64,000 bases of DNA from a virus. Positions within the stretch are counted from its first letter, which is position 1. The number at the start of each line of letters is the position of its first letter. Under the pieces are notes generated by a model that saw nothing but the letters and a program-made list of their open reading frames with translations, had not been told where the DNA came from and did not search any database. Positions 21,960 to 45,807 of this stretch are shown here, in pieces. The translations under genes and the position numbers were made by a program. Location of the stretch: IMG/VR virus record IMGVR_UViG_3300012682_000001, positions 1-64,000 of that record; one strand, 5' to 3'.

Positions 21960-23113
21960 TGCTTTGTTTTTCTTTGTGTTATGCCGAGGGAGTTCTCGGC
22001 GCGTGTTATCTCCCGTTCTTCGTAATGAAGGACGACTGCTGAGCCCCGGAGCTTCCTCCGAGACCCAGCCGTCGTTCTACTTCGCGACCACCCACGGATA
22101 AATCCGCAGGCTCGCTACTGTGGCCACCTCACGGTGACCCGACGTGGTGCCGAGCTTTCACGCCCTCAGGCGTTATGGCAGGCTCGTGACCAGAGCTTCC
22201 TCAAAGCTCTGGTGATCTCATGGCTTCCCGTTTAATGAACCGCGCACCTGGTTAAGATGCGCCAGCTCAACAGCCCGCACTTGAGGTTCGGCTCACGGTT
22301 ATTTACCCCGTGGCCGCCATGCAGGCGTCCATGAATCCACCCAGGAGAGAGCAGCCTTGTAAGGCCGCCCGTCTCTTGACTGATACTGTTTAATGTTCCT
22401 GTTGCGCCCTGAGTGAGACCTCCACACGGCCACGGCATTTATCCACAAAGGGACCGCGGCGGTGCGTGCTCATAGAGTCCGGTTTTCAATACCGTGACAG
22501 CGCGTTTTACTGACCTCCTTTCCAGCAGGAGGCAACCCATCCATTCGATAATCCCACCATCGAACTTGGGCAACGCGCTACGTCCGAGCAATCGCGACGC
22601 AACATTCATTCCATGCTCTCCCGGTGGCATTGAGAGCCGGGGAGCTTTAATCGCAGACGACTTCTCATCATCGTCTGCTCGTGGCCAAGGCCGCTACTGT
22701 TTGTGCGGGTGAACGTGGCCATTTCCAATCGAGTGCTCGGGGAAGCTGAGCATCCCCTTGACGGCACGGTCAGCCCGTGCGACAACCGGAGCAACTACGC
22801 ATCCGACATCACACAGCCTGAGCGCCATCGCTCGATCTGAAGTTGTCAAAGAACTACCACCCGCTCGGTCTCTGCCAGGAGACCTTAGGGAGAGGGGCGC
22901 TGGGGGATAAACCCCCAGCATTCTTTCTCGTTACCACCACCAACTTTGCAGTTTGAGCGGTGGGTCTGAAATCGAACCCTGCACCTGAGGAAAGTGCTCT
23001 ACGTCTCTGTGCCGTTAAGCATAACTCAGGATATAAAAATGGTGGCGACGACACCTACCCCTCTTCTGTGTTGACCCCGAGACCCCGTTGACAGAACCTC
23101 TGGACATAAAGCC
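21960..23113. other. 1154-nt ORF-free, hairpin-dense region between divergent blocks; candidate large structured ncRNA and/or regulatory/origin region
   Basis: Only short, overlapping, junk-like ORFs in all six frames. Many perfect stems: 21983-22000, 22047-22060, 22190-22212 (9 bp), 22514-22532, 22653-22678 (8 bp), 22764-22780, 22867-22884, 22899-22919 (8 bp). Confidence 0.45.
22899..22928 (+). terminator. terminator-like hairpin inside the ORF-free region
   Basis: GCTGGGGG ATAAA CCCCCAGC followed by ATTCTTTCT on the + strand. Confidence 0.4.
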
Positions 23114-23377
23114 ATGGCGACGAGCGACCACACCCTGCGTTTCCGCCAGGACAGCACCGAGAGCCTGATCACCCTAAAGGCATCCCTCATCGCCAAGGAG
23201 TCCGTCTTCTCCCAGCAGGCCATGGGCAGCAAGAGCTTCACCCGCGACCTGCGCTTCATGGCAGACCAGATCAACGCCATCTGCTTCGTGCTGGCGGAGC
23301 GCGGTTACACCGTCCACCCCACGGCGCCGACTGCGAATTACGGAGCTGGTATTTGTGATTTCAGCAACGTCCAATGA
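23114..23377 (+). CDS. gpW-like head-tail joining protein
   Basis: 87 aa, immediately upstream of and ATGA-coupled to the portal, as lambda W is to B; helical Leu/Ile pattern. Confidence 0.5.
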   Translation: MATSDHTLRFRQDSTESLITLKASLIAKESVFSQQAMGSKSFTRDLRFMADQINAICFVLAERGYTVHPTAPTANYGAGICDFSNVQ

Positions 23378-25209
23378 CGCTCAACGGAAATACTCCCAAC
23401 GGGGAAATCCAGCTCGCCCGCCTGTATGACGGAGGGGGAAACATCGTCACAGAATGGAACCCACGCTTCGAGGCTGTCCGTCGCGAGCGCGAGATTCTCT
23501 TCGGAGCAGGCGGATACAACCCCGTAGCCGAGCGTAGAGGCAGGGCCAAGGCCGCAGGGGGCTCCGAGAACTGGATCGCCAACAGAGACCGCGTGAAGGC
23601 TATGGCGGACGCCCGTGACGCCTTCACCTTCGACTGGATCGGAGGCGTCATCGCCAAGGTGGTTCTCTACGTCTGCGGTCGCCTCCACGCCAAGAGCGCC
23701 ACAGGAGAGGGCCAGATCGACCAGATGTATGACGACTACTTCCATGGTTGGTGCGGGGACGAGCGCGACGCGCAAGGACTCCCTCGCTGCGACTTCAGTG
23801 GCCGCCATCGATTCCTAAAGCAAGTCCAGCTCGCCTTCATGTCCTTCCTCGTGGACGGGGATCACGGGCTACTGGAGATCAACCCGGAGTTTTCACCCAA
23901 CGGAGAGTTCTGCCTCCAGAACATCGAGGCAGACCGCATTGGCTCCCCCATGGAGGGCTCGATCGCCGAGGACTACATCGGCGGAGTGAAGATCGACCCG
24001 ATGACCGGGCGCGTGCAGTTCTACCGCATCTTCCAGAGGACGCGGACGAACCAATACATCAACCCACAAGAGGTCCCGCCAGAGTCATTTATTCACGTCT
24101 TCGACCCGGATCACGGAGATGAATACCGGGGCCGCACCAAGCTCCTGCGCATCCTCAACGACCTCCGGGACATCCGGGAGTGGATCGAAGCGGAGAAGAT
24201 CGCAGGCAAGACCCAGAGCCAATACGCGGCACTGATCGGAACCAAGGACCCGATGAGCGGACAAGGAGCCTCTGCGTGGAGCGACAAGACGGCAGAAGGA
24301 ACCCCAACCCAAACTGCCCAATGGGGCAAGCTCCTCAAGCTGGCAGAAGGCGAGAACTTCTCGATGCTCTCCCCAGCCGCCCGACCCAGCGGAGCCTTCA
24401 TGCAGTTTGTGGACACGCTGATCCGCAAGATGGGCGTGAGCCTTAACCTTCCCTACGGATTCCTATGGGACCTCGCCACCCTCGGAGGCGTCACGGCCCG
24501 CATCGAAGTGCAGAGCGCCCTCCGCCAGATTCAATACTGGCAGGACAACATCCTCGTCGGACTGATCCTCGATCGTGTGCGCCAGAAGGTGATCGCACAG
24601 GGGATAGCCATGCAGATGCTTCCGGCGCACCCGCTGTGGAAGAAGTGCTCTTGGAATTTCGGTCAGTGGATCACCACCGATCAGGGCTACGAGATGTCTT
24701 CCGACCTCGAAGGCCTTGGTGCTGGCATCCTGCGCATCGACTCAGTGACCGGGAAATACGGAACCACTCCTCGCGAGGTGCTGACCTCCAATGCCAGCGC
24801 GGCCAACGACGCCCTGGGTGTTGGAGCCGAACACGCCCTGCCGGTCGAGACGTTCGCCCGCGGCCTCTGGCCCGACATCACGAATCAGAAGGCTGCGTTC
24901 CTCGCGCAGACGCCGATTCCTTCGCCTCCTCCTGGTAGCTTCGAGGCCATTGGAGACAAGGGGGTCGCCAAGATGGTTGAGATCGCGCAGTCCGTTAAGG
25001 AAGGGACGATGGATCGGGAAAGCGCCATCGCGATGATGCGAACCGCCTTCGGGTTCACGCCGAAGCAAGCCGACGCACTGGTCCCTGACGAGCCGACCCC
25101 AGCAGAGGCGAACCGGGCCGCTGGCCTTGATGTGAAGGGCAATCATCCGAAGCCAGCAGCCGCGAAGACCTCCAGCAGCAACGGCAGCAGGAAGCCAGCA
25201 CGCAAATGA
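23374..25209 (+). CDS. portal protein (lambda gpB-like)
   Basis: 611 aa. Position after the gpW-like gene and before the internal/protease/capsid genes. Acidic central domain; C-terminal Ala/Lys/Pro tail. Confidence 0.8.
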   Translation: MTLNGNTPNGEIQLARLYDGGGNIVTEWNPRFEAVRREREILFGAGGYNPVAERRGRAKAAGGSENWIANRDRVKAMADARDAFTFDWIGGVIAKVVLYVCGRLHAKSATGEGQIDQMYDDYFHGWCGDERDAQGLPRCDFSGRHRFLKQVQLAFMSFLVDGDHGLLEINPEFSPNGEFCLQNIEADRIGSPMEGSIAEDYIGGVKIDPMTGRVQFYRIFQRTRTNQYINPQEVPPESFIHVFDPDHGDEYRGRTKLLRILNDLRDIREWIEAEKIAGKTQSQYAALIGTKDPMSGQGASAWSDKTAEGTPTQTAQWGKLLKLAEGENFSMLSPAARPSGAFMQFVDTLIRKMGVSLNLPYGFLWDLATLGGVTARIEVQSALRQIQYWQDNILVGLILDRVRQKVIAQGIAMQMLPAHPLWKKCSWNFGQWITTDQGYEMSSDLEGLGAGILRIDSVTGKYGTTPREVLTSNASAANDALGVGAEHALPVETFARGLWPDITNQKAAFLAQTPIPSPPPGSFEAIGDKGVAKMVEIAQSVKEGTMDRESAIAMMRTAFGFTPKQADALVPDEPTPAEANRAAGLDVKGNHPKPAAAKTSSSNGSRKPARK

Positions 25210-28200
25210 GCCCACTCCAGAAGGCAGGGATCACCATTGGAGTCATCGGGGCCGGAGGCGCCGCATGGAAGCTGCGAAACCAAGAAGGCAGAGAAAGAGC
25301 GCGATCAGCGGCTGCCCCCGCTGCGGTTGGCGCCCTGTTTGGCGCAGGCTTTGGACTACAGAGGGGGTTCGCCGGTGGATTAGTGGACGCAATCAAGAAC
25401 CGACCAGACCTCCTGAAAGGTAATATGGGACCACTTCCATATGCGCTAAAGCACGCTGGTTTAGGAGCCCTTAAAGGCGTTATTCCAGGGCTCGCAGCCG
25501 GAGCAGGATCAGGATTCCTAATCCGCAAGATCATGCAGCACGACAAGCCCCCGAGGCAGCAGCTCTCCTCCCGGCATAAGCTCATCCAGTTTGACGACTT
25601 CCAGCCCCACCAGCGCCGCCATAGTGAACCTAAAATGAGCAACATCAGCCGATTGATCGAACTGGCCCGTGGCGACTACTTCAAGCGCTACGCTAAGGAC
25701 AGCGACTACAGCCAGGACCCGAACGCCAGGACGGTGCGCGATGCGGTCTTCAAACCAACGCCGATCGACAAAGAATACCAGACCCCAGGGCGAGGCGGAG
25801 TGCATGGCCCACCTGAAAGACCAGAGGTCCGCAAGGCCAGAACGCTCGCCTCAAGGCAGACCCGCAGCGCGATCGAGGCGATGGTCCAGGCAGACATTAA
25901 GACTGACCTCACTGGAAAGCACACCGCCCACCGGAAGTCCATCGACGACGCGATCAAGGACCACCAAGCCCAAACGGGATACATCCGCTCACAGGGCCTC
26001 AACGAGGAAGCCGCCAAGCGCGATGCTGAGCACAAGCTGAAGATCAAGGCGACAGAGAGCAAGTATTCGGACTCGATCCTCGGACGCAACAAGACCGACC
26101 CAGTGATGGGAACCCAGGCTCAGACGGCCAAGACAGCCAAGCGCCAGAGGCGGCTCATTAAGGGTGCCCCAGGTCCCCGCAAGATGTCCGAAGCCGACAA
26201 GCTCAGCGTGCTTGCAGACCGGGATAAGTTCGGCAGCTCCATGGCGGCAGAGCTGAGGGAAAGAAACAACATCCTTCGCGGAGCCCGCAAGGCTGCCGGG
26301 GCGACGAACATCAAGGCAGCCAATGCCAAGTTCGCGCCCATCATGGCAGGCATCCCGGCCTCCGGTGAAAGGAAGGCCATCCCCGGCCTTAGGGACCTGG
26401 TGTCTTCAGAGGTGGCCAAGCGGACTGCCGGGGACTCCGATCGTGCAGCGAACGTCAAGCGAGCCGTGAAGGCCAAGGCGGAAGCGCGCATGGGTCGCAA
26501 CGTCACTGAGCCAGAGATTCTCAAGACGCGGGTCAACGAAGTCACCAAGCCGATCTTCAGTCCTGCTGCATTGGGCGGAGAAGCCGCTCAATACGACCGA
26601 GACTCCATCGCCAGTAAACTGGGCCTCAAGGGCCGCAATGTGGATGCGATCAAGGCCCGCTACTCACTCCTCGCCAACCAGCAGGCGACAAGGAAGGCCC
26701 AGGTGACCAGCCAGGTCATCAAGGAAGGCAAAGTCTTCGAGCCCATCCGCTCAGCGACTCACGCCAGCCGCAGCTACCCAGCCCTCAATAAAAACCTCGG
26801 CAAGATCAAGGTCGGAGCAGCCGGACTCGCTGCCGCAGCGATCGGGACCGGCGTAGCTATCGAGCGGAGGATCAAGGCCAAGCGTGAGAAGAAGAAAGAG
26901 CTGGTCCAGTTCGCACTCAAACTCTCGCCCACCGGAGCAGAGAGGGCTGCAAAGCGCGCGGTCAAGAAGGCGCTGCCGGTTCTTCAGGGCAAGGGCTTAA
27001 TCGGGCCGACGCTCACCCCAACCACATCCATCGGCTCTCCAATCGGGCAGGTAATAACGGAGAAGAAAGCCATGGTGAACGGAGGGCTGGTCAACCCAGA
27101 GGAGCACGTAGCCATACTCAAGAGCCGCATTGCGGAGATGGTTAATGACTCCAGAACGGCCAAGGGATTCCTGAAGAGCAGGGTCCAAAACCAGCAAACC
27201 GCCCACGAGAAGCTCGTCGAGAATCTCCGTGACCGCTACACCACGGAGGCAAGCACCCTAAAGAGCGACTTTAGGAAGGTCCGATCCCACGACACAGAGG
27301 TGGCCAAGAAGCGCCTCTTCATCGGAACTGGAGCAGCGGGATCAGTAGGAGCCGTGGCTGGATACGAGACCGGAAGGCCCAGTAAACGAAAGGAGGTTCA
27401 GTTCTCGGAGAAAGAGAAAACCAGCACCACCCGTAAGCTGCTGATCGGAGGAGGCCTTCTGGCGGGCGCTGCGATCGGAGCCCGAACCAGCCCGCGTCTT
27501 CTCCGCAGGGGCCGCGCCATGCAGGAGGGCGAAAGCCTTCTGGGAAAAGTGGTCTATTCCAATCAAGGCGTTACCAGCGCAGCGGATGTGATCCACCTTC
27601 CAGGAGGCCGCAGCCTTAAGTCGATCCTAAAAAAGGCTAGCAGGTCCGAAGGCATGAAGGGAACCGCAGCGAGAGCCGCCCTGAAGGTGGATAGCTTCAT
27701 GGGAATTCCCCAGCGCCACTACGGAGTAGGAGTTGGCAGCGGAAGGATCGCCGAAGTCAGCCGGACGAACGGAAGGCGGGTCGTTCCCGAAGAGAGCTTT
27801 GGCAAGGTTATGGTGGAGAGCGAGGGTAAGATTCTCAAGGAGCCAATCCGCCGACAGCACGAGGGCCGCTCTGGCACCATGGACGACCAGGCGGCAGGCG
27901 CCTTCAACCGCCGCTACGAAGAGGCTCAGGGTTCCAATAAGTGGAAGAAAACCAACATCAACATTTGCAGCGGCACTAACTGCGAGTCCTATGCCAACAA
28001 CCTCGCGGGATTCGGACCGAAGACCCGCCAGATAAACTCGATCATCACGGGCGGAGTCGGAGGGGCGCTGGTAGGCGGAGCAGCCACATCCCAAGCCACC
28101 CGAAAGAAGAAATCAAAGGGGCCGATAATGTTCAGCTCACGATCCAAGAAAGACGAAACCCTGCGCGGAGCAGCCCGCATGGGCATCAGCTCTGGAGTCA

Positions 28201-30281
28201 CTGGAGCTGCTGGTGGGTTAATCCTCGGCCTGGCCGGGACCGGGGAAGGCCGGGCATTCGGTAAGACCAACGTCCTAAAGGCACTGAAGTCAGCAGGGAA
28301 ATGGGGAGGCGGCCTCGCAGCCGCAGGTGCAGGCGGAGCGCTGATCGGCTCGGCGATCCTAGGGGCGCCCAAGCGCAACGAAGGCGCTGCCTACACCAAG
28401 CGAGGAGCCATCGGAGGAGGGGTTGCCGGGGCTATCGCAGGAGGAACCATCGGAGCCCTTGCGTTACGCAATAAGTGGAGCGCGGGAATCATCGCTAAAT
28501 ACGCCAGGGACTGGAGGCCCCTGCAAGTCATCCAGAAGAGCGGAGCATTCTCCAGAGCCGCGATCGGAGCCACCGCAGGAGGCGCCGCAGGAGCAGCCCA
28601 GCTTGCGGATGAAGGCCAGCAGGTTGATACACTCAACTCTGCCACAAGGAAGAAGCAATACCGCATGTCCTCGAACCTACAGCCCATCCAGTTCGCAGGC
28701 CTTCCCGTAGCTCAGGACCGCTACCGCAAGGCCATCCGAGAGAAAGAGGGCGAGCGCGCCGACAGCAACTACCTCCGTAGCGCAGCCGCAGGCACCACCA
28801 TAGCGGCTCTCCTGAGGCGCAAGACGGGTTTAGCCATACCCCAGGCCCTCCTGACCGGCGCGGGGATCGGCGTGGCCTCCCAGGCGGCAATGCGGGCCAC
28901 CTCGGCCAAGGACGCCTTCGGAGACCGCTCCTACAACGACAAGCGCAAAGAGCGGCTCCCATGGCAGGCAGGCGGCCTCGTCGCCACTGGCCTCCTCGCC
29001 AGGCGTGCGGGTAACAAGCTGCGTGACCTCAAGGTGGGCGTTAGTCGGACTGGTCGGAATATCCGCACCGGAGCGCTGGTCGCAGGTGGGGCGTATCTCG
29101 CCAACCGCATGCTGTTCAATTCCATCGGAAAACCCATCGAGTTCGCCTACGACCCAGTGGCCGACGCCCTTCGCGAGCGCAGCCAGAAAGACCGCCAGAA
29201 ACGCAGCTCGATGCGCGCCGCAGAAGACCTCTACCGAAAGGCCGGACGGGGCAAGCGACTGGCGCGGGACGCCTCCCTCGCACTCAAGGGTGAGAAGAGC
29301 GTCGATAGTCGTGGCCGTGAGCGTGTCCCGGAGTGGCAGAAGCCGTGGGTCAAGCAAGCCGTGGGGCTCGGTATCGCCGCGCTGGCGATCAGGAAGGCCC
29401 GTGGCAGCTATCGGGGGATCAAGGAGGCCGCAGCCGCGCAGAAGCAAGCAACAGGCGAAGCGCATGGCATCCCCGGAGCGGTGGACCGGATCGGCCAGCT
29501 CTTTAAGCGCTCGGACACCTACACCCACGGAGGCGCAATCGTTACGCCATATTCGGCGCTCCAGAGCACGCTAAAGAACAAGATTCCTCGATCGATCGCC
29601 AAGCCCGCATTGGCCATTCGCCGGGAGATTAGGAATACCGTCCGAGACACCAAGGCAGTCATCAATGACAAGGTGGACGACGTGGTTAATCGATGGACTG
29701 GGACCACACCGGGTGTCGAGGCGGCTCGGGTCGTGGCCGCTGACCAAAACAAGGTCAAGAAGGTCAAGGACCGGCTGAAACAAATCCGAGCGGTCAACGC
29801 CGGAGTGAAGCCAGGCAAGCTCTCAGAGTTCTCCGTTCATCAGTTCGCCACGACCCTCGACGACTGGGACATCAGCCACCGCAGCCGCAACACGGCGATC
29901 GTCCGCATCCCCGGAGGCCAGAAGCGAGACCGTCGCCAGAAGGACTACCTGGAGACCGCAGCAGGGCAGAGGATGGTCCGAAACATTGCTATCGGTGGGT
30001 CACTGGCAGCCGGAGCAGGAGGCGCAGCGATCTTTGACCGGCACATGAACTCAGTGAAGAATGCAGCGATGGCCGAGGGCTTCAAGGACCACCCTTCAGG
30101 CTTCAAAGTCAGCGGAGTGAATGAGGCTGCCGAGAAGGCGACCTCCAAGGCAGCCAGAGCGGCCAAATTCGCAGCCATCCAGAGGGAGTTCCGGCAGGCA
30201 GCAAAGAGGTTTGTAATCAAGGCATCCTCCAGAGACCCGCTGATCACCCTCAGCGTCAAGCTCGACTACCTGATCTCCTGA
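25206..30281 (+). CDS. 1691-aa internal virion protein: repeated glycine-zipper modules with embedded LRAT/NlpC-P60-like domain
   Basis: About 17 Gly/Ala-rich hydrophobic segments (e.g. GGGLAAAGAGGALIGSAILGA) alternate with Lys/Arg-rich linkers and x-I/V-Q/E-F motifs. H-box RHYGVGVGSGRIAEV and NC-box TNCESYANNL. Confidence 0.85.
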   Translation: MSPLQKAGITIGVIGAGGAAWKLRNQEGRERARSAAAPAAVGALFGAGFGLQRGFAGGLVDAIKNRPDLLKGNMGPLPYALKHAGLGALKGVIPGLAAGAGSGFLIRKIMQHDKPPRQQLSSRHKLIQFDDFQPHQRRHSEPKMSNISRLIELARGDYFKRYAKDSDYSQDPNARTVRDAVFKPTPIDKEYQTPGRGGVHGPPERPEVRKARTLASRQTRSAIEAMVQADIKTDLTGKHTAHRKSIDDAIKDHQAQTGYIRSQGLNEEAAKRDAEHKLKIKATESKYSDSILGRNKTDPVMGTQAQTAKTAKRQRRLIKGAPGPRKMSEADKLSVLADRDKFGSSMAAELRERNNILRGARKAAGATNIKAANAKFAPIMAGIPASGERKAIPGLRDLVSSEVAKRTAGDSDRAANVKRAVKAKAEARMGRNVTEPEILKTRVNEVTKPIFSPAALGGEAAQYDRDSIASKLGLKGRNVDAIKARYSLLANQQATRKAQVTSQVIKEGKVFEPIRSATHASRSYPALNKNLGKIKVGAAGLAAAAIGTGVAIERRIKAKREKKKELVQFALKLSPTGAERAAKRAVKKALPVLQGKGLIGPTLTPTTSIGSPIGQVITEKKAMVNGGLVNPEEHVAILKSRIAEMVNDSRTAKGFLKSRVQNQQTAHEKLVENLRDRYTTEASTLKSDFRKVRSHDTEVAKKRLFIGTGAAGSVGAVAGYETGRPSKRKEVQFSEKEKTSTTRKLLIGGGLLAGAAIGARTSPRLLRRGRAMQEGESLLGKVVYSNQGVTSAADVIHLPGGRSLKSILKKASRSEGMKGTAARAALKVDSFMGIPQRHYGVGVGSGRIAEVSRTNGRRVVPEESFGKVMVESEGKILKEPIRRQHEGRSGTMDDQAAGAFNRRYEEAQGSNKWKKTNINICSGTNCESYANNLAGFGPKTRQINSIITGGVGGALVGGAATSQATRKKKSKGPIMFSSRSKKDETLRGAARMGISSGVTGAAGGLILGLAGTGEGRAFGKTNVLKALKSAGKWGGGLAAAGAGGALIGSAILGAPKRNEGAAYTKRGAIGGGVAGAIAGGTIGALALRNKWSAGIIAKYARDWRPLQVIQKSGAFSRAAIGATAGGAAGAAQLADEGQQVDTLNSATRKKQYRMSSNLQPIQFAGLPVAQDRYRKAIREKEGERADSNYLRSAAAGTTIAALLRRKTGLAIPQALLTGAGIGVASQAAMRATSAKDAFGDRSYNDKRKERLPWQAGGLVATGLLARRAGNKLRDLKVGVSRTGRNIRTGALVAGGAYLANRMLFNSIGKPIEFAYDPVADALRERSQKDRQKRSSMRAAEDLYRKAGRGKRLARDASLALKGEKSVDSRGRERVPEWQKPWVKQAVGLGIAALAIRKARGSYRGIKEAAAAQKQATGEAHGIPGAVDRIGQLFKRSDTYTHGGAIVTPYSALQSTLKNKIPRSIAKPALAIRREIRNTVRDTKAVINDKVDDVVNRWTGTTPGVEAARVVAADQNKVKKVKDRLKQIRAVNAGVKPGKLSEFSVHQFATTLDDWDISHRSRNTAIVRIPGGQKRDRRQKDYLETAAGQRMVRNIAIGGSLAAGAGGAAIFDRHMNSVKNAAMAEGFKDHPSGFKVSGVNEAAEKATSKAARAAKFAAIQREFRQAAKRFVIKASSRDPLITLSVKLDYLIS

Positions 30282-30303
30282 TTGACAGAAACCCACTACA
30301 AAC

Positions 30304-30846
30304 ATGAGCCGCCTGACCAAACTAATTGAACTCGATGCGAAGCTGGATGGCGTTCTGCAATTCCGCAGACGGGTCGATGAATACGGCAACGAATACGAGG
30401 AGGACGGCATGGGGGCAGGAGGCGTGGCGGCAGCGGGCGTAGGCGGGGCTGGCTTGCTGGCTGGCGGCCTATACGCACGGGGTCGCTACGTGCCAGGGCC
30501 TGTGGCTCCGGGCTTTCGAGGAATTGAGCAAACCATGGCAAAAGGTGGAGGCAGCATGGTTGGGGCTGCCGGTGGATACGCACGCAGCGCCTATGGGGAG
30601 GCAAAGGGGTATGCGACAAACGCCTACGCAGGGGCGAGGGGCTACGCTTCCCAGCAGGCCGGAATTTACAATAAGGGCTTCACCAAGGGCGGCGGTGGAA
30701 TGAAGGGCCTCTATCGGGGCGTCAAAGGGGTGGCCAGGTCGATCACCAAGGGCCGGTCCAGATTCGTAGGTCTGTCCGATAACTCTCAGCGCCTAATGCA
30801 GCTCAGCTCGAAGCTGGACGAGGTGATGGAGTTCGGCGCACGGTAG
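30304..30846 (+). CDS. Gly-rich internal protein flanked by the shared motif
   Basis: Starts MSRLTKLIELDAKLDGVLQF and ends RLMQLSSKLDEVMEFGAR; the core is Gly/Ala/Tyr-rich. Confidence 0.7.
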   Translation: MSRLTKLIELDAKLDGVLQFRRRVDEYGNEYEEDGMGAGGVAAAGVGGAGLLAGGLYARGRYVPGPVAPGFRGIEQTMAKGGGSMVGAAGGYARSAYGEAKGYATNAYAGARGYASQQAGIYNKGFTKGGGGMKGLYRGVKGVARSITKGRSRFVGLSDNSQRLMQLSSKLDEVMEFGAR

Positions 30847-30859
30847 GCCACTGAGCCCG

Positions 30860-32206
30860 ATGCAGCGCCCTGAGTCCAGGCAGGAGGGGAACACCGCCAG
30901 GATTGCAGCCGGTGGGCTGTTAGCCGCCACCAGCCTGCCCTTACTCAGGGGGGCTGCTAGGTTCGCCGGGGCCAGATTCCGACCCACGCTAGCCAGGGCG
31001 GTCAGGCCGTTAAACAAGGAGTGGGCCAAATCCATCGGAAGCCACGGGAAGCGAGTCGTGGATTACATCGAGGGCTCGCAGCAGATGCTCAACCGAGGCG
31101 TGACCGGAAAGCTGGCAGGCTTGGCGATCCAGCGCAACACACTCAACCAGCCAGCCAAAGGCTTGCTCCATACCGCCAAGTTCAGGGCTGGCCCCTCCAG
31201 CGCGTTCAGTCACTGGACCAAGGAGGTCTCCGAGAAGATCAGACCAGGAGCTTCAGCCGATCTGCACGCGACTCAATCCCGGTCAGCCTTGGCACAAATG
31301 AACTCGCTCATGAAGAAGGGAGGGAACGAGTCAGAAGCCTTAAAGGAGGTTGCGACCAGTGGAGCCCACGCAGACCTGATGCGAAGGATGATCACATCCA
31401 AGTCCAAGAACGCCAAAGATTACTCGGATGTCACAGCCGTTATCGCGGGAGCCCCCGTGGCAGCAGGGGCTGGTATCTACGCCACGAGGAACAAGAAGAA
31501 GGAGCTGTCGGACCCTGATCCGCTGATCAGACTAGAGGCGCAGCTAGACGGCCTAATCGACTTCAGCATGCTCGGAATGCTGGCCATCGGCAGCGGCGTC
31601 CATGTGGCTCAAAACGCCATGTTCAAGGCAGCGGCATCTACAAAATACGGTAAGCGAGTCCTGGCATCATTGTTCCAATCAGGGGTTAGGCACGCCAAAT
31701 CCGGCAAGCAAGTTAGACCCGGAATCCTGCGCGCCACTGATGCGATTGCTGGCCCCGAATACAGTCACATCTACAAACAGGGCCTGAAGAGCACCCGCAT
31801 CCAGAGACTAGCCGCAAGCGCCTCCAGTAAACTTGGGCTCGGCAAGGACGTAACAGACGCCACAGACGTGATGACCGGGAGGCGATCCAAGGGATTCGAG
31901 AAGGTCTTGAACTGGGCACCCAAGGCCCCAGTGACCAACAGCAAGTGGGCGGGGGCGACAGGGGGCGCAGTGGCTGCCGCAGGAGCGGCCTTTGTGGAGC
32001 CCTTGGTCCCAGCCGTAAACCTAGCCCGAACCATCATCGCCGAGACCAGCATGGGAGAGCGAATCCTAAAGAGCCGATTCCTCAAGGGTATTGGAGGGGA
32101 CAAGCCCTCAAGGGTAAGGCAGGTTATCGAGGATTACGTTGCCAGCCCCACACTGGGGAAGGTTCAGGCCATGGGATACGGCATCAGCCGCCGAGCAATC
32201 GGCTAA
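30860..32206 (+). CDS. internal virion protein with shared motif
   Basis: 448 aa; glycine-zipper segments and a central KKKELSDPDPLIRLEAQLDGLIDF. Confidence 0.7.
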   Translation: MQRPESRQEGNTARIAAGGLLAATSLPLLRGAARFAGARFRPTLARAVRPLNKEWAKSIGSHGKRVVDYIEGSQQMLNRGVTGKLAGLAIQRNTLNQPAKGLLHTAKFRAGPSSAFSHWTKEVSEKIRPGASADLHATQSRSALAQMNSLMKKGGNESEALKEVATSGAHADLMRRMITSKSKNAKDYSDVTAVIAGAPVAAGAGIYATRNKKKELSDPDPLIRLEAQLDGLIDFSMLGMLAIGSGVHVAQNAMFKAAASTKYGKRVLASLFQSGVRHAKSGKQVRPGILRATDAIAGPEYSHIYKQGLKSTRIQRLAASASSKLGLGKDVTDATDVMTGRRSKGFEKVLNWAPKAPVTNSKWAGATGGAVAAAGAAFVEPLVPAVNLARTIIAETSMGERILKSRFLKGIGGDKPSRVRQVIEDYVASPTLGKVQAMGYGISRRAIG

Positions 32207-32300
32207 TTGACAAGAGCCCTGATGGCAATGGCTACCAAGAACGGAAAGCTGACGAGCAGCAAGAAGACCAGCACAGCTAAAATCTGACGAAGGTTCATAT

Positions 32301-33746
32301 ATGAATTCAAGAGATGCAATCAGGCTTGGCAAGCGCTATCCCCTCACGGAGTTCGGGGCGCTAAGCGATTTCATGTCCGCCGCCAGGAGGGCGGGACAGA
32401 GAGTGTCGAGAAATCCAGCAGGAGAGATGGAGAAGGTCAGCGCCAGGGTGGAGGCAGCAATGCTGGGAAGCGAGGGCAAGGTCACCAAGCGCCAAGCCAG
32501 GGAAATCATCCGAGGAATCGCTGGCAACGATGCGGCATCCTCGGCAGTGATCAGCCCCAGGGTGTCCAATCGCTACAACCCCCTCGCCGAAGCATTCCCG
32601 AACCTCAGGGAGGCCCTGAAGAAGGCCCCGCCGCAGGTAAGAGGAGCGGTGAACAGCGTGGTGGGGGCTCCGATCCACGCGCAACCAATTGCCGGAGTCG
32701 TAGCTCACGAGGCCACGCACATGCGTCAGAATCAGATGGCTGGAGCGGCTGGAGGAAAGATCGCCAGCAGCCTGGCCCGAAAGCTCGGCGCCGGAGATGC
32801 CGGAGCCGCTACAGCCGAGAGCTTTGGGACGCTGGCGGGCAAGGTTGGTATCACACAGGCTTACGGCGCCCCAGTTCACCCGGTCGTCGAAAAGGCAGTG
32901 GCTGGCCTTCACGCAAGGGGAATGCCAAAGGCAGCAGCGGCGGTCTCAGCGGCGTCTCACGGGCCACAGTTGGCCATGGAAGGCCACGCCAACCTCGCAG
33001 CCCTGAAGCACCCAGGAGGAGGCCGCGTTGCCGCCGTATCCCAGGGCAGCTACACTGCTGCCGCCTTGCAGAGGATCAAGCGCGCCTACCGTGGCGAGAA
33101 AGAGCTATCGTCCCGAGATCAGCTTAACGAGATCATCCAGCTCTCCTCCTGCAACTACCCCCGCCTCGCCCGAGCAGGCATATCCCCTGGCATGGCAGCC
33201 GACGCGAAGAAGATGAAGAAGCGGACCGGCGAAGACCCGCTGAAGGGGCTGCTCAAGGGGGCGATCGGGTTGTCGGCGAGGGAAGAGCTAGACCAAATTC
33301 AGTTCGGCTTCGGGGATGCGGCTCAGCGCTTTTACGAGAGGCATCCAAAGAAAGTATCAGGGGCCGCGTCAGCCCTAGGGGCGACAGCGGGGATCGCCTC
33401 CTACTACGGCCTCTACCGGCTATACAAACATCTTAAAAAACCCAAGGAAAACCAGCAGGCCTTATCGGCCCGCGACCAGCTCGACACCATCCTCTTCGGC
33501 ACCGACCCCCGCCCCCGCAACAACCTCGGCATGTTCAGCCAGGACGGAGAGCAAGGCCCTAATCCCAACGCCGTCCACGAAGTTTACAAGAGGCCCGCAC
33601 CCCAAGCCCCGATGCCCCCAGCAGCCCCGGAGGAAGAAGCAGTCCCACCACAGCAAGGCGGAGTCAGGGGGCTGATCGGCAGGGTCAGGTCGGGTGAGGT
33701 GAAGATGAGCGCCCGCGACCAGCTCGACTCGATCATCCAGCTCTGA
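32301..33746 (+). CDS. internal protein with DUF4157-like zincin motif and four C-terminal motif copies
   Basis: VVAHEATHMRQNQ (HExxHxxQ, 32706-32720). Motif copies LSSRDQLNEIIQL, SAREELDQIQF, LSARDQLDTILF, MSARDQLDSIIQL-stop. Confidence 0.7.
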   Translation: MNSRDAIRLGKRYPLTEFGALSDFMSAARRAGQRVSRNPAGEMEKVSARVEAAMLGSEGKVTKRQAREIIRGIAGNDAASSAVISPRVSNRYNPLAEAFPNLREALKKAPPQVRGAVNSVVGAPIHAQPIAGVVAHEATHMRQNQMAGAAGGKIASSLARKLGAGDAGAATAESFGTLAGKVGITQAYGAPVHPVVEKAVAGLHARGMPKAAAAVSAASHGPQLAMEGHANLAALKHPGGGRVAAVSQGSYTAAALQRIKRAYRGEKELSSRDQLNEIIQLSSCNYPRLARAGISPGMAADAKKMKKRTGEDPLKGLLKGAIGLSAREELDQIQFGFGDAAQRFYERHPKKVSGAASALGATAGIASYYGLYRLYKHLKKPKENQQALSARDQLDTILFGTDPRPRNNLGMFSQDGEQGPNPNAVHEVYKRPAPQAPMPPAAPEEEAVPPQQGGVRGLIGRVRSGEVKMSARDQLDSIIQL

Positions 33747-33840: not shown

Positions 33841-34755
33841 ATGACCGAAGCTGAGACCGATCTCTCACAAGCCCTGCCGGAAGGCGAGGGGAAAGTAACG
33901 ACGATCTACGCGCTCGTTAATCCGACCACGGGGATTCCGTTTTATGTCGGCAAGGCGAACAACGCGCACAAAAGATTCACCAAGCACCTGCATGAGGCCG
34001 CGCTGTGGAGTAAGTGGGCTTCAGGGGGAGGGCGAAACGAAGAGCGGCCACCCAAGGTAAGTAACGTAGGGAAGTGCTCCGCGATCGACGGGATAACCAA
34101 GGATGGTCTGATACCCGAGGTGAGGATTCTGGAGAGATGCACCTTACCTCAATGGGCCGCCCGAGAAAAGTTCTGGCATTCGGAACTGGAAAAATCGGGA
34201 GCCATATTGACCAATAGCGCGGAGTGCGGAGCGGGATGCACATATCAAACACAGAGAGCGATAGAGGCGATGCGGTCTTCGAGAACGGGGCTAAAGGCCA
34301 GCCCCGAAACCTGCGCCAGAATAAGCAAGGCTATAAGGTCCAGCCTCCGAGTTAAGGCTGGGAATAAAGCCAGAAAGGGAAAGAGAAAACCGGAGGGGTT
34401 CGGGGCCATGGTGTCCCGTAACTGGACAGGAAGAAAGCACTCGGATGAAACCAAGGCGAAGATCAGCGCAGCAAGGAAAGGGGTTCGGCAGCCGGACTGG
34501 GTAAAGCAGAAGATCAGCGCTGGATTACAGAGCAGCGAAAAAGCGAGAGCAGCGCGGCTGGCCAGTATAGGGAGGAAACTAACCCCAGAGCACAGGGCCA
34601 ATGTCAGCGCGGCCCTGAAGGGAATACCCAAACCGACCGTAAGCGCCGCCCATAAAGGAAAGAAGAAATCCCCCGAGCACATGGAGAAGCTAAGGGCCGG
34701 ATACATGGCCTTTCTTGAGAGATCGCGAGCAGAGAGAGACCCTGCCTCGGATTGA
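33841..34755 (+). CDS. GIY-YIG homing endonuclease with NUMOD3 repeats
   Basis: TTIYALVNPTTGIPFYVGKANNAHKRFTKH (GIY...YVG...R). Repeated G-x-K-x-S-x-E-x-K-x-K-I-S modules (GRKHSDETKAKISAARKG, GKKKSPEHMEKLRAG). Confidence 0.85.
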   Translation: MTEAETDLSQALPEGEGKVTTIYALVNPTTGIPFYVGKANNAHKRFTKHLHEAALWSKWASGGGRNEERPPKVSNVGKCSAIDGITKDGLIPEVRILERCTLPQWAAREKFWHSELEKSGAILTNSAECGAGCTYQTQRAIEAMRSSRTGLKASPETCARISKAIRSSLRVKAGNKARKGKRKPEGFGAMVSRNWTGRKHSDETKAKISAARKGVRQPDWVKQKISAGLQSSEKARAARLASIGRKLTPEHRANVSAALKGIPKPTVSAAHKGKKKSPEHMEKLRAGYMAFLERSRAERDPASD

Positions 34756-34770
34756 CAAGACGGCTGAGGC

Positions 34771-36162
34771 ATGTCCGAGCCTCAGACCATACTACTTCAC
34801 ACGACCCCGGTTTACGCGGGGATGACGGGCGTAATCGACAAAGAGAATTGTATCATCCGAGGGGTCTCGCTGATCACCGGAGATTGCATTGCCGAAGGAC
34901 ACGATCTTCATGTGGACGGGCAGACACTCACGCAGCTCCACGCCCTAGCCGCGTCACGCGGAAAGGTGCCTGTTGGATTGGATCACGGCCACGGAATCGC
35001 GGCCACCTGCGGATACATGACCGACTTCCGGCTGGACGGGAACAAGCTGCGCGGAGACTGGCACCTCCTAAAGTCCCACGACGAGACCCCTCGGATGCTC
35101 GAAAGAGCGGAGACCCATCCAGAAGGGTGGGGGATGAGCTGCGCGTTCAAGGGTCAGGGTGTTGCGACATCCGGGGGCAAGAAAGCAGCCCGCGCGGAGA
35201 AGCTATTAAGCGTCGATGCGGTGACGCGACCCGCAGCCAATGATGGCCTCTTCAGCGCGAAAGATTCGCAGTCGGTTGACAAGTTCACTTTCTCCAACTC
35301 CACCAACATGGCTGACAAAAAAGATTCCAACGCTGAGCCCACCATTGCCGACCTCATGGCAGCGATCAATCAGCAGAACGAGCGCTTCGAGCAGCTCTCC
35401 CAGTCCCACGAGCAGCTCATCGGGCAGCTTCAGGGCCAGGGCGAGGAAGGCCAGGAGCAAGGCCAGCCCTCCGTTCGCGACATTCTCGAAGACCTCCACA
35501 ACTCCACCGATGAAGACCTCGCAGCGCGCGGCCTGACTCGTGACGAGGTGAACGCGGAGATCGGCCAATACAACCAGATGCTCGCACAGGGAATCGACCC
35601 CGAAGCGGCAATGGGCGGCGAGGGAGAAGCCCAGGGCTACGAGGGCGATCAAGGCTACCAGGGCAGCTACAGCCCAGAGCAGGGCCAGCAGGCCGGAGCG
35701 CCAGCAGTCGGAGCCGGTGTCGAAGGCGGCACGGCCACAACCTTCAACGCCCTTCAGCGTCAGGTCATGCAGCTCTCCGCAGCTATCCGGGCTCGGGACA
35801 ACGCGGAGAAGGCCCAGTCCGAGGAGATTCAATTTAGCGAGGTATCTGGAAAGATCGACATGATGGCCAACATGAGAGACCGGGCAGTCGAACTGGCGGA
35901 GCGCCTGGTATCCGAAAACGAAGCGCTTCGCTTGGCGGTGAACACCGGCACCCGCCCAGTCCGCCCAGGCATCGACAACGGAGTCCGCCTCTTCAGCGCC
36001 AACGGCGACGGCCAGCTCCACGCCTTTCAGGCCTCGATCAAAGAAATCCAGCTCAGCGAGAAATGCTCCACCGGGCAGGCGACCCTCAAGGCCATCCAGC
36101 GGAACCCAGGCCTGCACGCCGACTGGCTCCAGAAGAGCGGCAGCATGCAGCTCGCGAACTAA
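34771..36162 (+). CDS. prohead serine protease - scaffold fusion
   Basis: N-domain VPVGLDHGHGIAATCGYMTDFRLDGNKLRGDWHLL ... WGMSCAFKG resembles HK97 gp4-type proteases. C-half is Gln/Glu/Gly-rich coiled coil. Lies directly upstream of the decoration and capsid genes. Confidence 0.75.
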   Translation: MSEPQTILLHTTPVYAGMTGVIDKENCIIRGVSLITGDCIAEGHDLHVDGQTLTQLHALAASRGKVPVGLDHGHGIAATCGYMTDFRLDGNKLRGDWHLLKSHDETPRMLERAETHPEGWGMSCAFKGQGVATSGGKKAARAEKLLSVDAVTRPAANDGLFSAKDSQSVDKFTFSNSTNMADKKDSNAEPTIADLMAAINQQNERFEQLSQSHEQLIGQLQGQGEEGQEQGQPSVRDILEDLHNSTDEDLAARGLTRDEVNAEIGQYNQMLAQGIDPEAAMGGEGEAQGYEGDQGYQGSYSPEQGQQAGAPAVGAGVEGGTATTFNALQRQVMQLSAAIRARDNAEKAQSEEIQFSEVSGKIDMMANMRDRAVELAERLVSENEALRLAVNTGTRPVRPGIDNGVRLFSANGDGQLHAFQASIKEIQLSEKCSTGQATLKAIQRNPGLHADWLQKSGSMQLAN

Positions 36163-36189: not shown

Positions 36190-36576
36190 ATGAATGTTCA
36201 TAACGTAGTCAGTCATGTCGTCGCCGCCGACCTAAGCGGGAAGGAGTATCAGCTCGTCAAGCTCACCGCAACCGGGATCGACATCGCTGCTTCCACGGAT
36301 CGCGCGATCGGCACCCTGATGCGCGGAAATGTCAAAGTGGAAAGCGGCTCAGCAGTCGGCAAAGCCTGTGACGTTTACCTGCGCGGCGGAGCCAACATCG
36401 CCTACGTCAAACTGGGAGCAGTCGCTGGCACCCTCAGCCTCGGAGCAGGCCTGATCGCAGACGCGGCCAACCCAGGATCGATGGTCGCCAGCGAGACCAA
36501 CGCAATCGCCATCGTGTGGCAGAAAGTTACCGGCGCCCAAACCGCAGGAGCCGTCGTTCAGGTCCTCTTCCTCTAA
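36190..36576 (+). CDS. head decoration / DUF2190-like protein
   Basis: 128 aa, Gly/Ala/Val beta-rich, between scaffold and major capsid gene. Confidence 0.5.
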   Translation: MNVHNVVSHVVAADLSGKEYQLVKLTATGIDIAASTDRAIGTLMRGNVKVESGSAVGKACDVYLRGGANIAYVKLGAVAGTLSLGAGLIADAANPGSMVASETNAIAIVWQKVTGAQTAGAVVQVLFL

Positions 36577-36618: not shown

Positions 36619-37590
36619 ATGTATAACACAGCAGACGCCATTCCCCGCGCCGAAATCAGCACCGTGCTGATGGAAGCGGTTGGTCAAGAAAAAGAGTTCA
36701 TCGCACCGATGGTGTTGCCGATCTACGACTCGGCCAACGAGATCGGGCGCTACCCTCGCTTCACCGTCCAGGACACGGAGCTGATGAAGAGTGGCTCGCT
36801 CCTCGTGGGCACCACCAAGCGCGGCTCGGCCGGCACCTACAACGAGATCGATCGCAAGTTCGCGTGGGACACCTTCCAGACCGAGGAATACGGCTTGGAG
36901 GAGCGCGTGGACGATGTGGTCGCTCGGAGGATGCAGAACTACTTCGACGCGGAGATGGTCACCGCCAAGTTCCTCAGCAACAACCTGATGATCGACTACG
37001 AGCGGGAAGCCGCTGCCGCGATCATGAACCCAGCGGTGTTCACCACGACCAACTCCTCGGTCCCTTACACCCAGGCGAACGTCGGCTCGATGGACGTGCC
37101 TTTCGATCTCAACTCGCTGGTCGAGCGCATGACCATTCTCGGCGAAGGCCGGACGGTCATCATCATGACTCTCCCGGTATGGAACCGCATCCGCAGCTCT
37201 GCGAAAATGCAGACCTACATGTATGGCCAGCTCAACACCACGCAGGGTGGAAGCCAGGTCACGCCTGACATGTTCGGCAACGCCTTCGGGGTGCAGGTGA
37301 TCATCGCCAAGAAGAGCTTCGACTCGGCGCTCAAGGGTAAGACCTCGACGCTGGTGCCGATCTGGGGGAACGACTACATCGCGGTGATGAACATCGGGGA
37401 AGGTGACTTCCTGACAGGCGGTGTGGGGCGGACGATCGTCTGGAGTCCCGACAGCCCCGGAGGCCTGTTTACTTCTGAATCCTACAGAGATGAGCCAAGA
37501 CGCAGCAACGTCCTCCGCGTGCGCTCCAATCGCACAATCAAGATTCTTGCCCCGCAGCAGGGCCAGCTCCTCGCCACCCAATGGGCCTAA
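36619..37590 (+). CDS. major capsid protein (lambda gpE-like)
   Basis: 323 aa; position; followed after one gene by a strong terminator. The fully antisense 325-aa ORF is Arg/Gly/His junk. Confidence 0.8.
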   Translation: MYNTADAIPRAEISTVLMEAVGQEKEFIAPMVLPIYDSANEIGRYPRFTVQDTELMKSGSLLVGTTKRGSAGTYNEIDRKFAWDTFQTEEYGLEERVDDVVARRMQNYFDAEMVTAKFLSNNLMIDYEREAAAAIMNPAVFTTTNSSVPYTQANVGSMDVPFDLNSLVERMTILGEGRTVIIMTLPVWNRIRSSAKMQTYMYGQLNTTQGGSQVTPDMFGNAFGVQVIIAKKSFDSALKGKTSTLVPIWGNDYIAVMNIGEGDFLTGGVGRTIVWSPDSPGGLFTSESYRDEPRRSNVLRVRSNRTIKILAPQQGQLLATQWA

Positions 37591-45150: not shown

Positions 45151-45807
45151 ATGGGTCAGAAAACCAGGCCTGTAGCGATCTGCACGGACTGCTACGAGTG
45201 CGAACAGTCCTGCTGCTGCAATCCGCTGGATTTTAGGGCGGAGGGCATCCGATACCCCTGCACTCTGCCAACGGATAAACCGCCGCTTTGCAAGAAGATG
45301 GAGTTCGGATTTCACTGGAACGAATTGCCAGCCTGCGTAATTGCACTCGCAAAGGGGGCGGAGATACTTTACGAAATACGCCTGGGCGACTGCGCATCCC
45401 CTGTGGTTCGCACCTTTGATCCACTCACGATACTAAATGCCATCAGCGCCGAACTATCACGCTCCGATTGGTGTGATACGCCATACCTCTGCAAATGCTG
45501 CGTCCCTGAAGTAGTGTGCCTTACGGTAACCGCTGGAGGTGAGGAGATAATGCGCTGCGTAGTATGCACTGACGGACCCTGTGACGAAAAGTGCTACCCT
45601 TCCGGCTGGTCAGAGAGCGGCAGCTCGACGAGCAGGCCATCGTCAAGCAGCAGCTACTCAAGCAGCAGCTATTCGTCTTCTTCCAGCTACTCGTCTTCGT
45701 CCTCGTCCAGCGATTCGAGTTATTCGAGCGCTTCGTCGGGCAGCAGTTCATCGAGTGATAGCCCTCCGCCGCCGCCGCTGCCCAGCAGTAGCTCCTCCAG
45801 CGCATGA
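45151..45807 (+). CDS. Cys-rich protein with ~60-aa poly-Ser tail
   Basis: About 20 Cys in the first 150 aa (CTDCYECEQSCCCNP, LCKCCVPEVVC, RCVVCTDGPCDEKC); Ser tract at 45610-45804 with mixed Ser codons. Confidence 0.7.
   Translation: MGQKTRPVAICTDCYECEQSCCCNPLDFRAEGIRYPCTLPTDKPPLCKKMEFGFHWNELPACVIALAKGAEILYEIRLGDCASPVVRTFDPLTILNAISAELSRSDWCDTPYLCKCCVPEVVCLTVTAGGEEIMRCVVCTDGPCDEKCYPSGWSESGSSTSRPSSSSSYSSSSYSSSSSYSSSSSSSDSSYSSASSGSSSSSDSPPPPPLPSSSSSSA

Follow-up and report, generated by a model that had tools for sequence, protein, structure and literature searches.

A 64,000-nucleotide stretch of an uncultured phage (positions 1 to 64,000 of IMG/VR record IMGVR_UViG_3300012682_000001, a sequence of about 69.6 kb; 'the window' in what follows) contains a head-morphogenesis block in which one short peptide motif, here called the tag, recurs across the proteins encoded between the portal and the prohead protease. 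We confirm the motif as genuine and non-random, and restricted to this portal-to-protease block. As for its role, we put at roughly even chances the proposal that the tag is a head-targeting signal, like the capsid-targeting sequence (CTS) of T4, that doubles as a processing site for the prohead protease, polyproteins thereby being cut into cargo modules. An earlier sequence-only reading of the window had offered cleavage site and docking peptide as two alternatives; the analysis presented here favours a combination of both.

On the plus strand, which carries all features of the block, the gene order is portal, a 1691-aa 'giant', p180, p448, p481, a NUMOD3 homing endonuclease, a 463-aa protease-scaffold protein, a cement-like protein and the major capsid protein (MCP). 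Four open reading frames (ORFs) carry the tag and would encode the cargo. The giant (25206-30281) is modular and combines Gly/Ala-rich hydrophobic segments with short tag copies; p180 (30304-30846) is small and Gly-rich with a tag at both ends; p448 (30860-32206) has one internal tag; and the polyprotein-like p481 (32301-33746), with homologues P0002, P0003 and 61 representative proteins, unites an HExxH module, four tags and a conserved DPRPRN..LG.F module. The HExxH motif, HEATH at about aa 127-131 of p481, is the sole recognisable effector-type module in the cargo proteins of the window. None of the four proteins matched any Pfam family, Phage_Mu_F included, in a Pfam scan, and the giant had no PHROG match. 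A family of unknown function, phrog_26650, matches p448 aa 237-313, beginning directly past the tag of that protein.

Copies were scored with fixed-width log-odds matrices, adopted because length penalties depressed the scores in a HMMER local search with a 14-column hidden Markov model of the motif (17 bits at most). The matrices were trained on sequences of relatives only and then applied to the window proteins. With the 14-column matrix, the four proteins (2800 aa) yield seven long copies that score 12 bits or more (range 14-33 bits), namely both ends of p180, one site in p448 and four in p481, against 0.02 expected from shuffles of the same proteins; the other window proteins scanned (12,346 aa) yield none. 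When the full 64 kb were scanned in six frames, only two weaker off-target matches were added (13.9 and 18.1 bits), about the number expected by chance. The giant was scored with a matrix of ten residues plus P1' (P1 being the last residue of the tag and P1' the one that follows it), trained on the homologous giants of four relatives only. It holds five short copies of at least 12 bits (0.04 expected), with P1 at aa 129, 153, 733, 1163 and 1313, and six of at least 8 bits (0.30 expected), the sixth lying at aa 569 with 9.0 bits. The recurrence described by the sequence-only reading thus stands up to comparison with shuffled sequences for long and short forms alike, and the positions it gave for the copies are right to within a few bases.

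The 463-aa protease-scaffold protein has 97 homologues in metagenome assemblies, many of them on contigs of 65-80 kb. Eight related loci were read, with a protease-scaffold identity of about 40-50%, and all eight encode, in this order, a portal, a giant (1019-1854 aa), two to six smaller proteins, a protease-scaffold, a cement-like protein and an MCP; homologous giants follow the portal in L001 and L004-L010. In L007-L009, which were kept out of training, matches of at least 12 bits fall solely between portal and protease. No such match was found in the L007 portal or in the protease, cement, MCP and tail genes of L007-L009, the portal genes of L008 and L009 being cut off. Across relatives and window, the motif model describes a family-wide feature exclusive to this block, with about 106 tag sites in nine phages (20.8 thousand residues). 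p481 retrieved 61 proteins when 1.84 billion representatives were searched in full with HMMER, and a word-indexed search with an alignment of the terminal module yielded 13 short fragments only; pooled, they contain 134 strong copies in 68 representative proteins. A scan of metagenome contigs returned just two short loci, and IMG/VR scans with p481 and with the protease found no relatives.

The tag occurs in three forms. The strict consensus proposed earlier, S-x-R-D-Q-L-D-x-I-I-Q-F/L, applies to the four copies of p481, but p180, p448 and the giant carry variant or shortened forms. Only the p481 copies fit S-A-R-[DE]-[EQ]-L-[DN]-x-I-I-x-[FL] (27-36 bits with the class-1 matrix). In p180, p448 and the C-terminus of the giant the tag reads L-h-x-L-[SN]-[AS]-[KR]-L-D-x-h-h-[QE]-F, a variant that aligns gaplessly to the strict form if anchored at the C-terminal end, and the giant otherwise carries the shortened form [LMF]-S-[SA]-[RK]-x-x-x-I-x-F. 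Peptides KMSARDQLDSIIQL and LIELDAKLDGVLQFRRR may serve as examples of the tag.

In p481, tag 1 (ELSSRDQLNEIIQL, followed by S; aa 268-281, 33102-33143) scores 29.8 bits and tag 2 (GLSAREELDQIQF, followed by G; aa 323-335, 33267-33305) 15.5 bits, or 30.1 bits with the class-1 matrix. Tag 3 (ALSARDQLDTILF, followed by GTDPRPRN; aa 387-399, 33459-33497; 14.3 bits, 34.7 bits class-1) is the leader of the terminal module, and together with the DPRPRN module it is kept in all relatives. Tag 4 (KMSARDQLDSIIQL, directly before the stop codon; aa 468-481, 33702-33743; 32.9 bits) forms the natural C-terminus. Tags 3 and 4 share 18 nucleotides (33468-33485 and 33711-33728), an identity noted by the sequence-only reading that proved exact. 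Since the other copies use different codons, conservation acts on the peptide and not on the DNA, and an explanation as a DNA repeat was discarded. The long tags of p180 are MSRLTKLIELDAKLDGVLQF at its N-terminus, followed by RRR (30304-30363, 22.8 bits), and LMQLSSKLDEVMEF near its C-terminus, followed by GAR and the stop codon (30793-30834, 26.9 bits); that of p448 is LIRLEAQLDGLIDF, followed by S (aa 222-235, 31523-31564, 17.4 bits).

The short sites of the giant lie at the same positions as those of its relatives and edge conserved blocks in a five-way alignment of giants. With a slash after P1, the two most N-terminal sites are LSSRHKLIQF/D (aa 120-129, 25563-25592, 26.3 bits) and MSNISRLIEL/A (aa 144-153, 25635-25664, 14.8 bits). 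The copy that the sequence-only reading wrote as ISRLIELARGDYF is present, but the scoring copy ends in ...LIEL and not in ...GDYF. REKKKELVQF/A (aa 560-569, 26883-26912, 9.0 bits) stands behind a Gly/Ala hydrophobic segment and a Lys/Arg patch (Kyte-Doolittle hydropathy 1.85 and eight K/R upstream), and relatives have ...RLRIINF/A, ...RHRPIEF/A and ...RGRVIQF/A at the same place. RPSKRKEVQF/S (aa 724-733, 27375-27404) scores 17.5 bits. MSSNLQPIQF/A (aa 1154-1163, 28665-28694, 21.1 bits) directly precedes the most conserved core of the giant and aligns with MSSRSKPIHF/D, FSAVDKVIYF/V, SLKPIQF/D and VLQEIRF/R, while FNSIGKPIEF/A (aa 1304-1313, 29115-29144, 15.7 bits) aligns with FSSRQRIVQF/A, MSNRDRIIRF/D and LSARGRPIQF/A. 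The degenerate copies claimed for the giant are accordingly borne out at the six sites of at least 8 bits, but three further candidates score poorly. The weak KKKSKGPIMF/S (aa 967-976, 28104-28133, 4.0 bits) nevertheless aligns with ...KKKEVQF/S in L004 and ...IDTVSF/S in L005, and the C-terminal variant, which lacks the terminal Phe (SRDPLITLSVKLDYLIS up to the stop codon, 30228-30278, ending in LITLSVKLDYLIS), falls below the matrix thresholds yet aligns with motif copies and also closes the giants of L001, L004, L005 and L007. KLSEF/SVHQF is below threshold and aligns to motif copies in only two of four relatives.

Residue preferences were taken from the roughly 106 sites, aligned at the tag end. 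P1 is F in 71%, L in 23% and M in 5%, together 98% of sites; P2 is Q or E in 61%, with Glu in 30 of 106 (28%); P3 is I in 80%; and P4 is L, I or V. P1' played no role in detecting these sites; among the internal ones, 77% have A, S, G or D there, and Ala accounts for 27% and S, G and D together for 49% of sites. Conservation runs 10-14 residues upstream and ends at P1. Most of the 106 sites are internal; twelve end within 25 residues of a protein N-terminus, and five are found no more than five residues from a C-terminus. The sequence-only reading had also placed copies directly behind a Gly/Ala hydrophobic segment plus a Lys/Arg patch. This describes about 5-6 of the 12 internal window sites, and the basic patch is enriched upstream of tags throughout the family (4.2 vs 2.8 K+R), but the hydrophobic segment, common in the window giant, shows only a modest family-wide enrichment (12% vs 6%).

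In an AlphaFold2 (AF2) model of p481 built with 36 homologues, each of the four tags is a short isolated helix (271-283, 326-334, 390-400 and 471-480) that begins just past a Ser and finishes at or near P1, with a pLDDT (predicted local distance difference test) of about 55-85; low-confidence segments adjoin most of the copies. Its beginning, S-x-x-[DE], resembles an N-capping box, and hydrophobic residues at i, i+3, i+4 and i+7 would share one helical face. We thus picture the tag as a short amphipathic helix with Ser just ahead of it and I-[Q/E]-[F/L] as its last residues.

The probable reader of the tag is encoded in the same block. For the 463-aa protease-scaffold protein (34771-36162), AF2 predicts a β-rich domain at about aa 20-151 (pLDDT above 90), a linker, long helices at 192-222 and 322-392 (71 residues) and a C-terminal helical domain. 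A Foldseek search against the PDB with this model ranked T4 gp21 first (5jbl; probability 1.0, template modelling score 0.56) and herpesvirus assemblins next, so that the label of prohead protease given by the sequence-only reading holds at the level of the fold. At the sequence level Pfam and PHROGs returned nothing useful for the protease, and a PDB profile search with the 463-aa protein found coiled coils only. H44, H72, D96, H103, E111 and S123 are invariant in 45 homologues. The gp21/assemblin fold together with the long helices identifies the protein as a prohead protease fused to a scaffold, as in herpesviruses; gpI of phage Mu has the same layout. In addition, a nearly invariant ...AAN-x-GLF/SAKD (aa 159-165, 35245-35265) is seen at the end of the protease domain, before the disordered linker, and could be a release site that frees the protease from the scaffold.

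The scaffold part carries conserved sites that match the tag end. A matrix built on the seven C-terminal residues of cargo sites, extended by P1' and P2', gave 100 matches in the last 150 aa of 93 homologues, compared with 3.2 after shuffling within that region; the protease domain had seven matches. They pile up at few aligned columns, which in the window correspond to P1 at aa 335, 355 and 375, spaced 20 residues apart within the long helix. These candidate sites are RQVMQL/SA (35758-35775; column matched in 18 of 93 homologues), EEIQF/SE (35821-35835, 13.7 bits; E-x-[IV]-[QE]-[FL] kept across the family alignment) and RDRAVEL/AE (35875-35895; column matched in 48 of 93, consensus QRD[QE]AI[EQ][LF]/AE). 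A fourth, KEIQL/SE with P1 at aa 428 (36040-36054, 8.0 bits), is kept in L001 and not in L002. In the distant L010, ...DSIEL closes the cargo tags, and ...IKSIEL/AE and ...EEKIEL/AA occur in the scaffold helix, a hint from this single lineage that cargo tag ends and scaffold sites may co-vary.

How the tag relates to protein architecture becomes clear from the relatives. Sites mark N-termini, module boundaries and C-termini, and the modules between them differ from phage to phage. Pfam modules of tagged proteins include DUF6321, Zn_peptidase_2, DNA ligase domains, NUDIX, InPase and, in one relative, a glycine zipper (DUF883_C); weaker matches are to a ferritin-like domain (sub-threshold) and PARP (very weak, E = 0.09). 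DUF6321 is bounded exactly by two tags within P0002, and L009 encodes it separately, as a 97-aa ORF tagged at the N-terminus. By reading of the sequences, p180 matches the N-terminal part of a 428-aa protein of L001, and its stop codon, three residues past the tag, coincides with an internal tag boundary of this fused protein. Likewise, L006 has the p448 N-terminal module (...VDYIEGSQQMLNRGVTGKLAG...) joined to the C-terminus of its giant. These three arrangements imply that ORF boundaries and tag boundaries are interchangeable. The earlier description of 'four otherwise unrelated proteins' needs a qualification, since the proteins are modular and differently fused in relatives. That the motif ties them into one head-associated system is strongly supported, the tag being kept while modules are swapped.

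Several tag-flanked modules of relatives were observed besides (L006 6957-8597; L008 999-5222; the P0091 contig; P0003, equal to L001 4720-6381), comprising a DNA ligase (LigD_N and OB domain), NUDIX, InPase and a ferritin/Dps-like domain, with an apparent ParB-type DGNHR motif ahead of the DNA ligase. They are candidates for injected effectors. The sole host hint comes from two Verrucomicrobiaceae contigs of metagenome-assembled genomes (MAGs), a weak indication that depends on binning. One is the MAG contig JAIXZA010000137.1 (69.4 kb), a distant relative with the tag variant ...EKVDSIEL, represented by L010 5444-11215.

Taken together, these data outline a possible course of head assembly. 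The tag helix would recruit the proteins of the portal-to-protease block into the assembling procapsid, its binding partner probably being the coiled-coil scaffold or else another interior surface. The phage's own assemblin/gp21-fold protease would then cut at or next to the C-terminal end of the tag, where a small residue or Asp usually follows. The same cuts would fragment the scaffold helix at its matching sites and resolve the giant and p481 into separate modules, which would stay trapped in the head and presumably be ejected with the DNA. In its simplest form, the model extends the CTS principle of T4 along polyproteins. Binding, its partner, cleavage, the scissile bond and ejection are all inferred. 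Copies at the N-terminus of small stand-alone proteins suggest a function beyond the separation of modules. That chains are cut at the tags is argued by their presence at nearly all module boundaries, by the fluid ORF boundaries and by the small residue after F/L. Since phages with a prohead protease normally fragment their scaffold, the matching scaffold sites point to the phage's own enzyme. A gp21-like cut after Q/E one residue earlier, which would fit [LIV]-I-E, is less likely given the low share of Glu at that position.

Several points weigh against this combined role. Assemblin-type proteases bind their substrates in extended form, and a helical segment of 10-13 residues is not their normal target, so that the conserved helix could be purely for docking. 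Proteases of this fold cut after Glu (T4, phiKZ-like phages), Ala (herpesviruses) or Lys (HK97); to our knowledge, cutting after Phe/Leu would be new for the clan. At natural C-termini (...IIQL before the stop codon of p481; three residues before that of p180) there is little or nothing to cut off. The P1' preference for G, S and D partly overlaps ordinary helix C-capping preferences. Matches in the scaffold, clear as their conservation is, come from related sequences and are not independent counts, and coiled coils are rich in I, L, Q and E. Some proteins of the block bear no tag, namely the 296-aa proteins of L005 and L007 and three of L008. Finally, cultured relatives were not found: tblastn searches of 50,697 GenBank phage records with the MCP, p481, the conserved core of the giant and the protease-scaffold as queries returned nothing, for the latter two even at E = 1.

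Four other explanations were considered. We assign a modest chance to docking alone, in which the helix would bind the procapsid interior (scaffold coiled coil, capsid or portal), copies would raise avidity, the proteins would stay intact and the likeness to a cleavage site would be incidental. The predicted helix after Ser with its one-sided hydrophobic positions, the long stretch of conservation that stops at P1, the copies at natural C-termini and the tag-like segments of the scaffold helix, with which cargo helices could co-assemble, are all in keeping with it. It accounts less well for a tag at nearly every module boundary and for interchangeable ORF and tag boundaries, as a single copy per protein would suffice; the Ala frequent at P1' is no helix terminator; and any ejection would require a 1691-aa protein to travel through the tail. 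The converse, a mere recognition sequence of the prohead protease with head entry by other means, for instance through binding of the giant to the portal, seems unlikely. The P1, P3 and P1' preferences, the matching scaffold sites and the protease fold would all be explained, but not the copies within the first 25 residues of proteins, including the small stand-alone p110 of L006 and the DUF6321 ORF of L009, where removal separates nothing; in addition, the conserved part is predicted to be helical and far exceeds a typical P4-P1' recognition sequence.

Very unlikely, in our estimate, is cleavage by another protease, either a host enzyme, as Prp is for phage 80alpha, or the HExxH module embedded in p481. 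Host Prp does cut an F/A leader of non-homologous phage proteins (PMC5744158), and embedded metallopeptidases have been proposed to process polyvalent proteins (PMC5512222). The HEATH motif of p481 and matches to Zn_peptidase_2 in two relatives would suit the second option. However, these two are the only such matches among 43 scanned relatives, whereas tag and assemblin-fold protease occur throughout, and no HExxH module was seen by eye in the tagged proteins of L004-L006; as a general processing enzyme the embedded module was thus rejected. The tag register also differs from the Prp consensus ...LQFF/A, and the lineage of the only host hint, the Verrucomicrobiaceae, is not known to have the L27 extension or Prp. 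The matching sites on the scaffold of the phage's own protease likewise speak against a foreign enzyme. Of the window proteins, 19 were scanned against Pfam, and none of these is Prp. Similarly improbable is a role after ejection, as an oligomerisation or membrane-binding helix, or at the level of DNA, as a junction that promotes recombinational shuffling of modules in the manner of polymorphic-toxin pre-toxin motifs. Extensive shuffling exactly at tag boundaries and the copy pair with 18 identical nucleotides are compatible with a junction, and the many tags behind Gly/Ala-rich hydrophobic segments and basic patches, along with the glycine-zipper match in one relative, suggest membrane-active modules. 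Yet most copies differ in their codons, which indicates selection on the peptide; the scaffold, which stays in the cell of assembly, has matching sites, pointing to a role in assembly; and the association with hydrophobic segments is weak across the family.

The proposed dual function can be set against several known systems. The CTS of T4 is a single N-terminal leader ending in L/I-x-E that is subsequently removed by gp21. It is the sole feature common to the T4 internal proteins and takes them into the scaffolding core (PMC3012670). The parallel consists in a short peptide shared by otherwise diverse proteins, in the gp21 fold of the protease and in those copies that are N-terminal leaders. 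Unlike the CTS, the tag can recur as many as 6-7 times in one polypeptide, where it marks internal module boundaries and C-termini, and in place of L/I-x-E it ends almost always in F, L or M with Glu in a minority at P2; there is also no sequence similarity, and this lineage has a lambda-type portal and a gpA terminase. In phiKZ-like phages the cleavage motif has the form [S/A/G]-x-E. In these giant phages (SPN3US gp245, phiKZ gp175), the prohead protease cuts many head proteins, ejection proteins among them, at a short motif that they have in common; long propeptides are cut at several sites, and all substrates except the protease lose N-terminal propeptides (PMC10052503). Neither a helical tag of 10-14 residues nor a module-by-module polyprotein layout is described there.

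Leaders cut by Prp follow the Prp/L27 consensus ...L-x-L-Q-F-F/A. In 80alpha, the capsid (CP) and scaffold (SP) proteins share a leader, present on ribosomal protein L27 as well, that host Prp cuts between F and A and that is required for assembly independently of cleavage (PMC5744158). This conserved leader of non-homologous virion proteins has Phe at its end and Ala behind it; in the tag, P1 is F in 71% and P1' is A in 27% of sites, and the register differs. The enzyme there is a host cysteine protease acting on a single N-terminal copy in a Firmicute, in contrast to a phage-encoded enzyme of serine-protease fold and a probable non-Firmicute host. Herpesviruses share with the present system a protease domain of the same fold fused N-terminally to a scaffold, and the scaffold here has conserved candidate sites. 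Their release and maturation (R/M) sites read (V/L/I)-x-A/S, a form not seen here, where the candidate scaffold sites read h-[QE]-[FL]/[SAQ]. The herpesvirus scaffold ends in a C-terminal capsid-binding helix, and no cargo polyproteins are known there that bear the same signal.

With regard to cargo, the polyvalent proteins come to mind, which are large, multi-domain, encoded beside head genes and predicted to be packaged and injected (Iyer et al. 2017, PMC5512222). The same paper reports that DarA and DdrB of P1 are proteolytically processed before or during head incorporation (PMC5512222). Multi-domain chains directly behind the portal and InPase, NUDIX, ART/PARP-like, zincin and ParB-like domains are common to both. 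In the passages searched, that paper mentions no repeated linear tag between modules, and it proposes embedded metallopeptidases for the processing. No MuF domain was detected here; a Pfam scan of the L001 proteins likewise revealed neither Phage_Mu_F nor a portal-fused MuF anchor. In encapsulins, a short peptide addresses cargo, including ferritin-like proteins, into an HK97-fold shell; it is C-terminal, extended, of GSL type and uncleaved, and portal, scaffold and protease are absent. The comparison with encapsulin cargo-loading peptides, drawn by the sequence-only reading, is no more than an analogy: one relative has a ferritin-like module between tags (a weak Pfam match), but the phage has portal, terminase and tail genes, and its tag, a predicted helix, lies mostly away from C-termini. 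The literature searched contained no description of a tag of this kind, which does not prove that none exists.

Some neighbouring features complete the picture of the window. The lambda-type portal protein (23374-25209, 611 aa; Pfam Phage_portal_2, E = 1e-31; phrog_21) forms the upstream boundary of the cargo block and has no motif match. Portals of L004 (437-2239), L005 (712-2586) and L007 (465-2339) share a loosely tag-like LN-h-h-DR-h-h-TF/F near the N-terminus; the window portal lacks it and starts with MTLNGNTPNGEIQL, followed by A. Such sequences might reflect portal processing, as with lambda gpB to B*. Downstream, the NUMOD3 homing endonuclease (33841-34755; Pfam NUMOD3, phrog_314), which the sequence-only reading did not mention, is an insertion outside the tag system that relatives lack at this position. 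NUMOD3 ORFs are found elsewhere in the head or tail region of L005, L008 and the P0082 contig, a placement that suggests mobile insertions in this phage family. Behind the protease-scaffold follow the tag-less cement/decoration-like protein (36190-36576, 128 aa), whose syntenic 119-aa gene on the P0091 contig has weak Phage_cement matches, and the MCP (36619-37590, 323 aa; phrog_1005 major head protein, E = 4e-22), also without a tag (no match of at least 12 bits).

Further away, on the side of the tail module, a 1172-aa protein (45804-49322) combines a glycosyltransferase family 9 (GT9), an FkbM-type methyltransferase and an Erv1/Alr sulfhydryl oxidase domain. Relatives encode some of these domains as separate genes, with GT9 and methyltransferase upstream of the portal on the P0091 contig and Evr1_Alr in L008. 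A large terminase of the lambda gpA type with ATPase and nuclease domains (61475-63337) lies about 38 kb from the portal in the linear representation and does not adjoin it, unlike in lambda. Between leftward and rightward gene blocks, about 1.15 kb (21960-23110) have no ORF longer than 75 aa, and Rfam gave no match in the window, this gap included. A 30-nt repeat is present three times at intervals of about 300 nt (21338, 21629, 21952); its copies coincide with the starts of three small minus-strand ORFs and hence look like shared leaders or ribosome-binding regions.

The selection of head cargo is understood for a few model phages only, such as T4, P1, P22 and the phiKZ-like phages. Sequence data alone reveal in this family a repeated label on fast-changing modules, encoded beside its probable reader enzyme. 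Going further, one may tentatively imagine a polyprotein strategy for head cargo in which a reusable helical zip code between every module docks by mimicking scaffold repeats and directs a Phe/Leu-specific protease of the assemblin fold; a new effector would be packaged and ejected once inserted behind a tag, and the loading signal would be portable and engineerable. If the dual role of the tag is true, it would provide these phages with a modular way to acquire injected effectors, allow cargo in metagenomic phages to be predicted from the motif only, offer a short peptide to load foreign proteins into capsids and extend the known specificities of the assemblin/gp21 protease clan.

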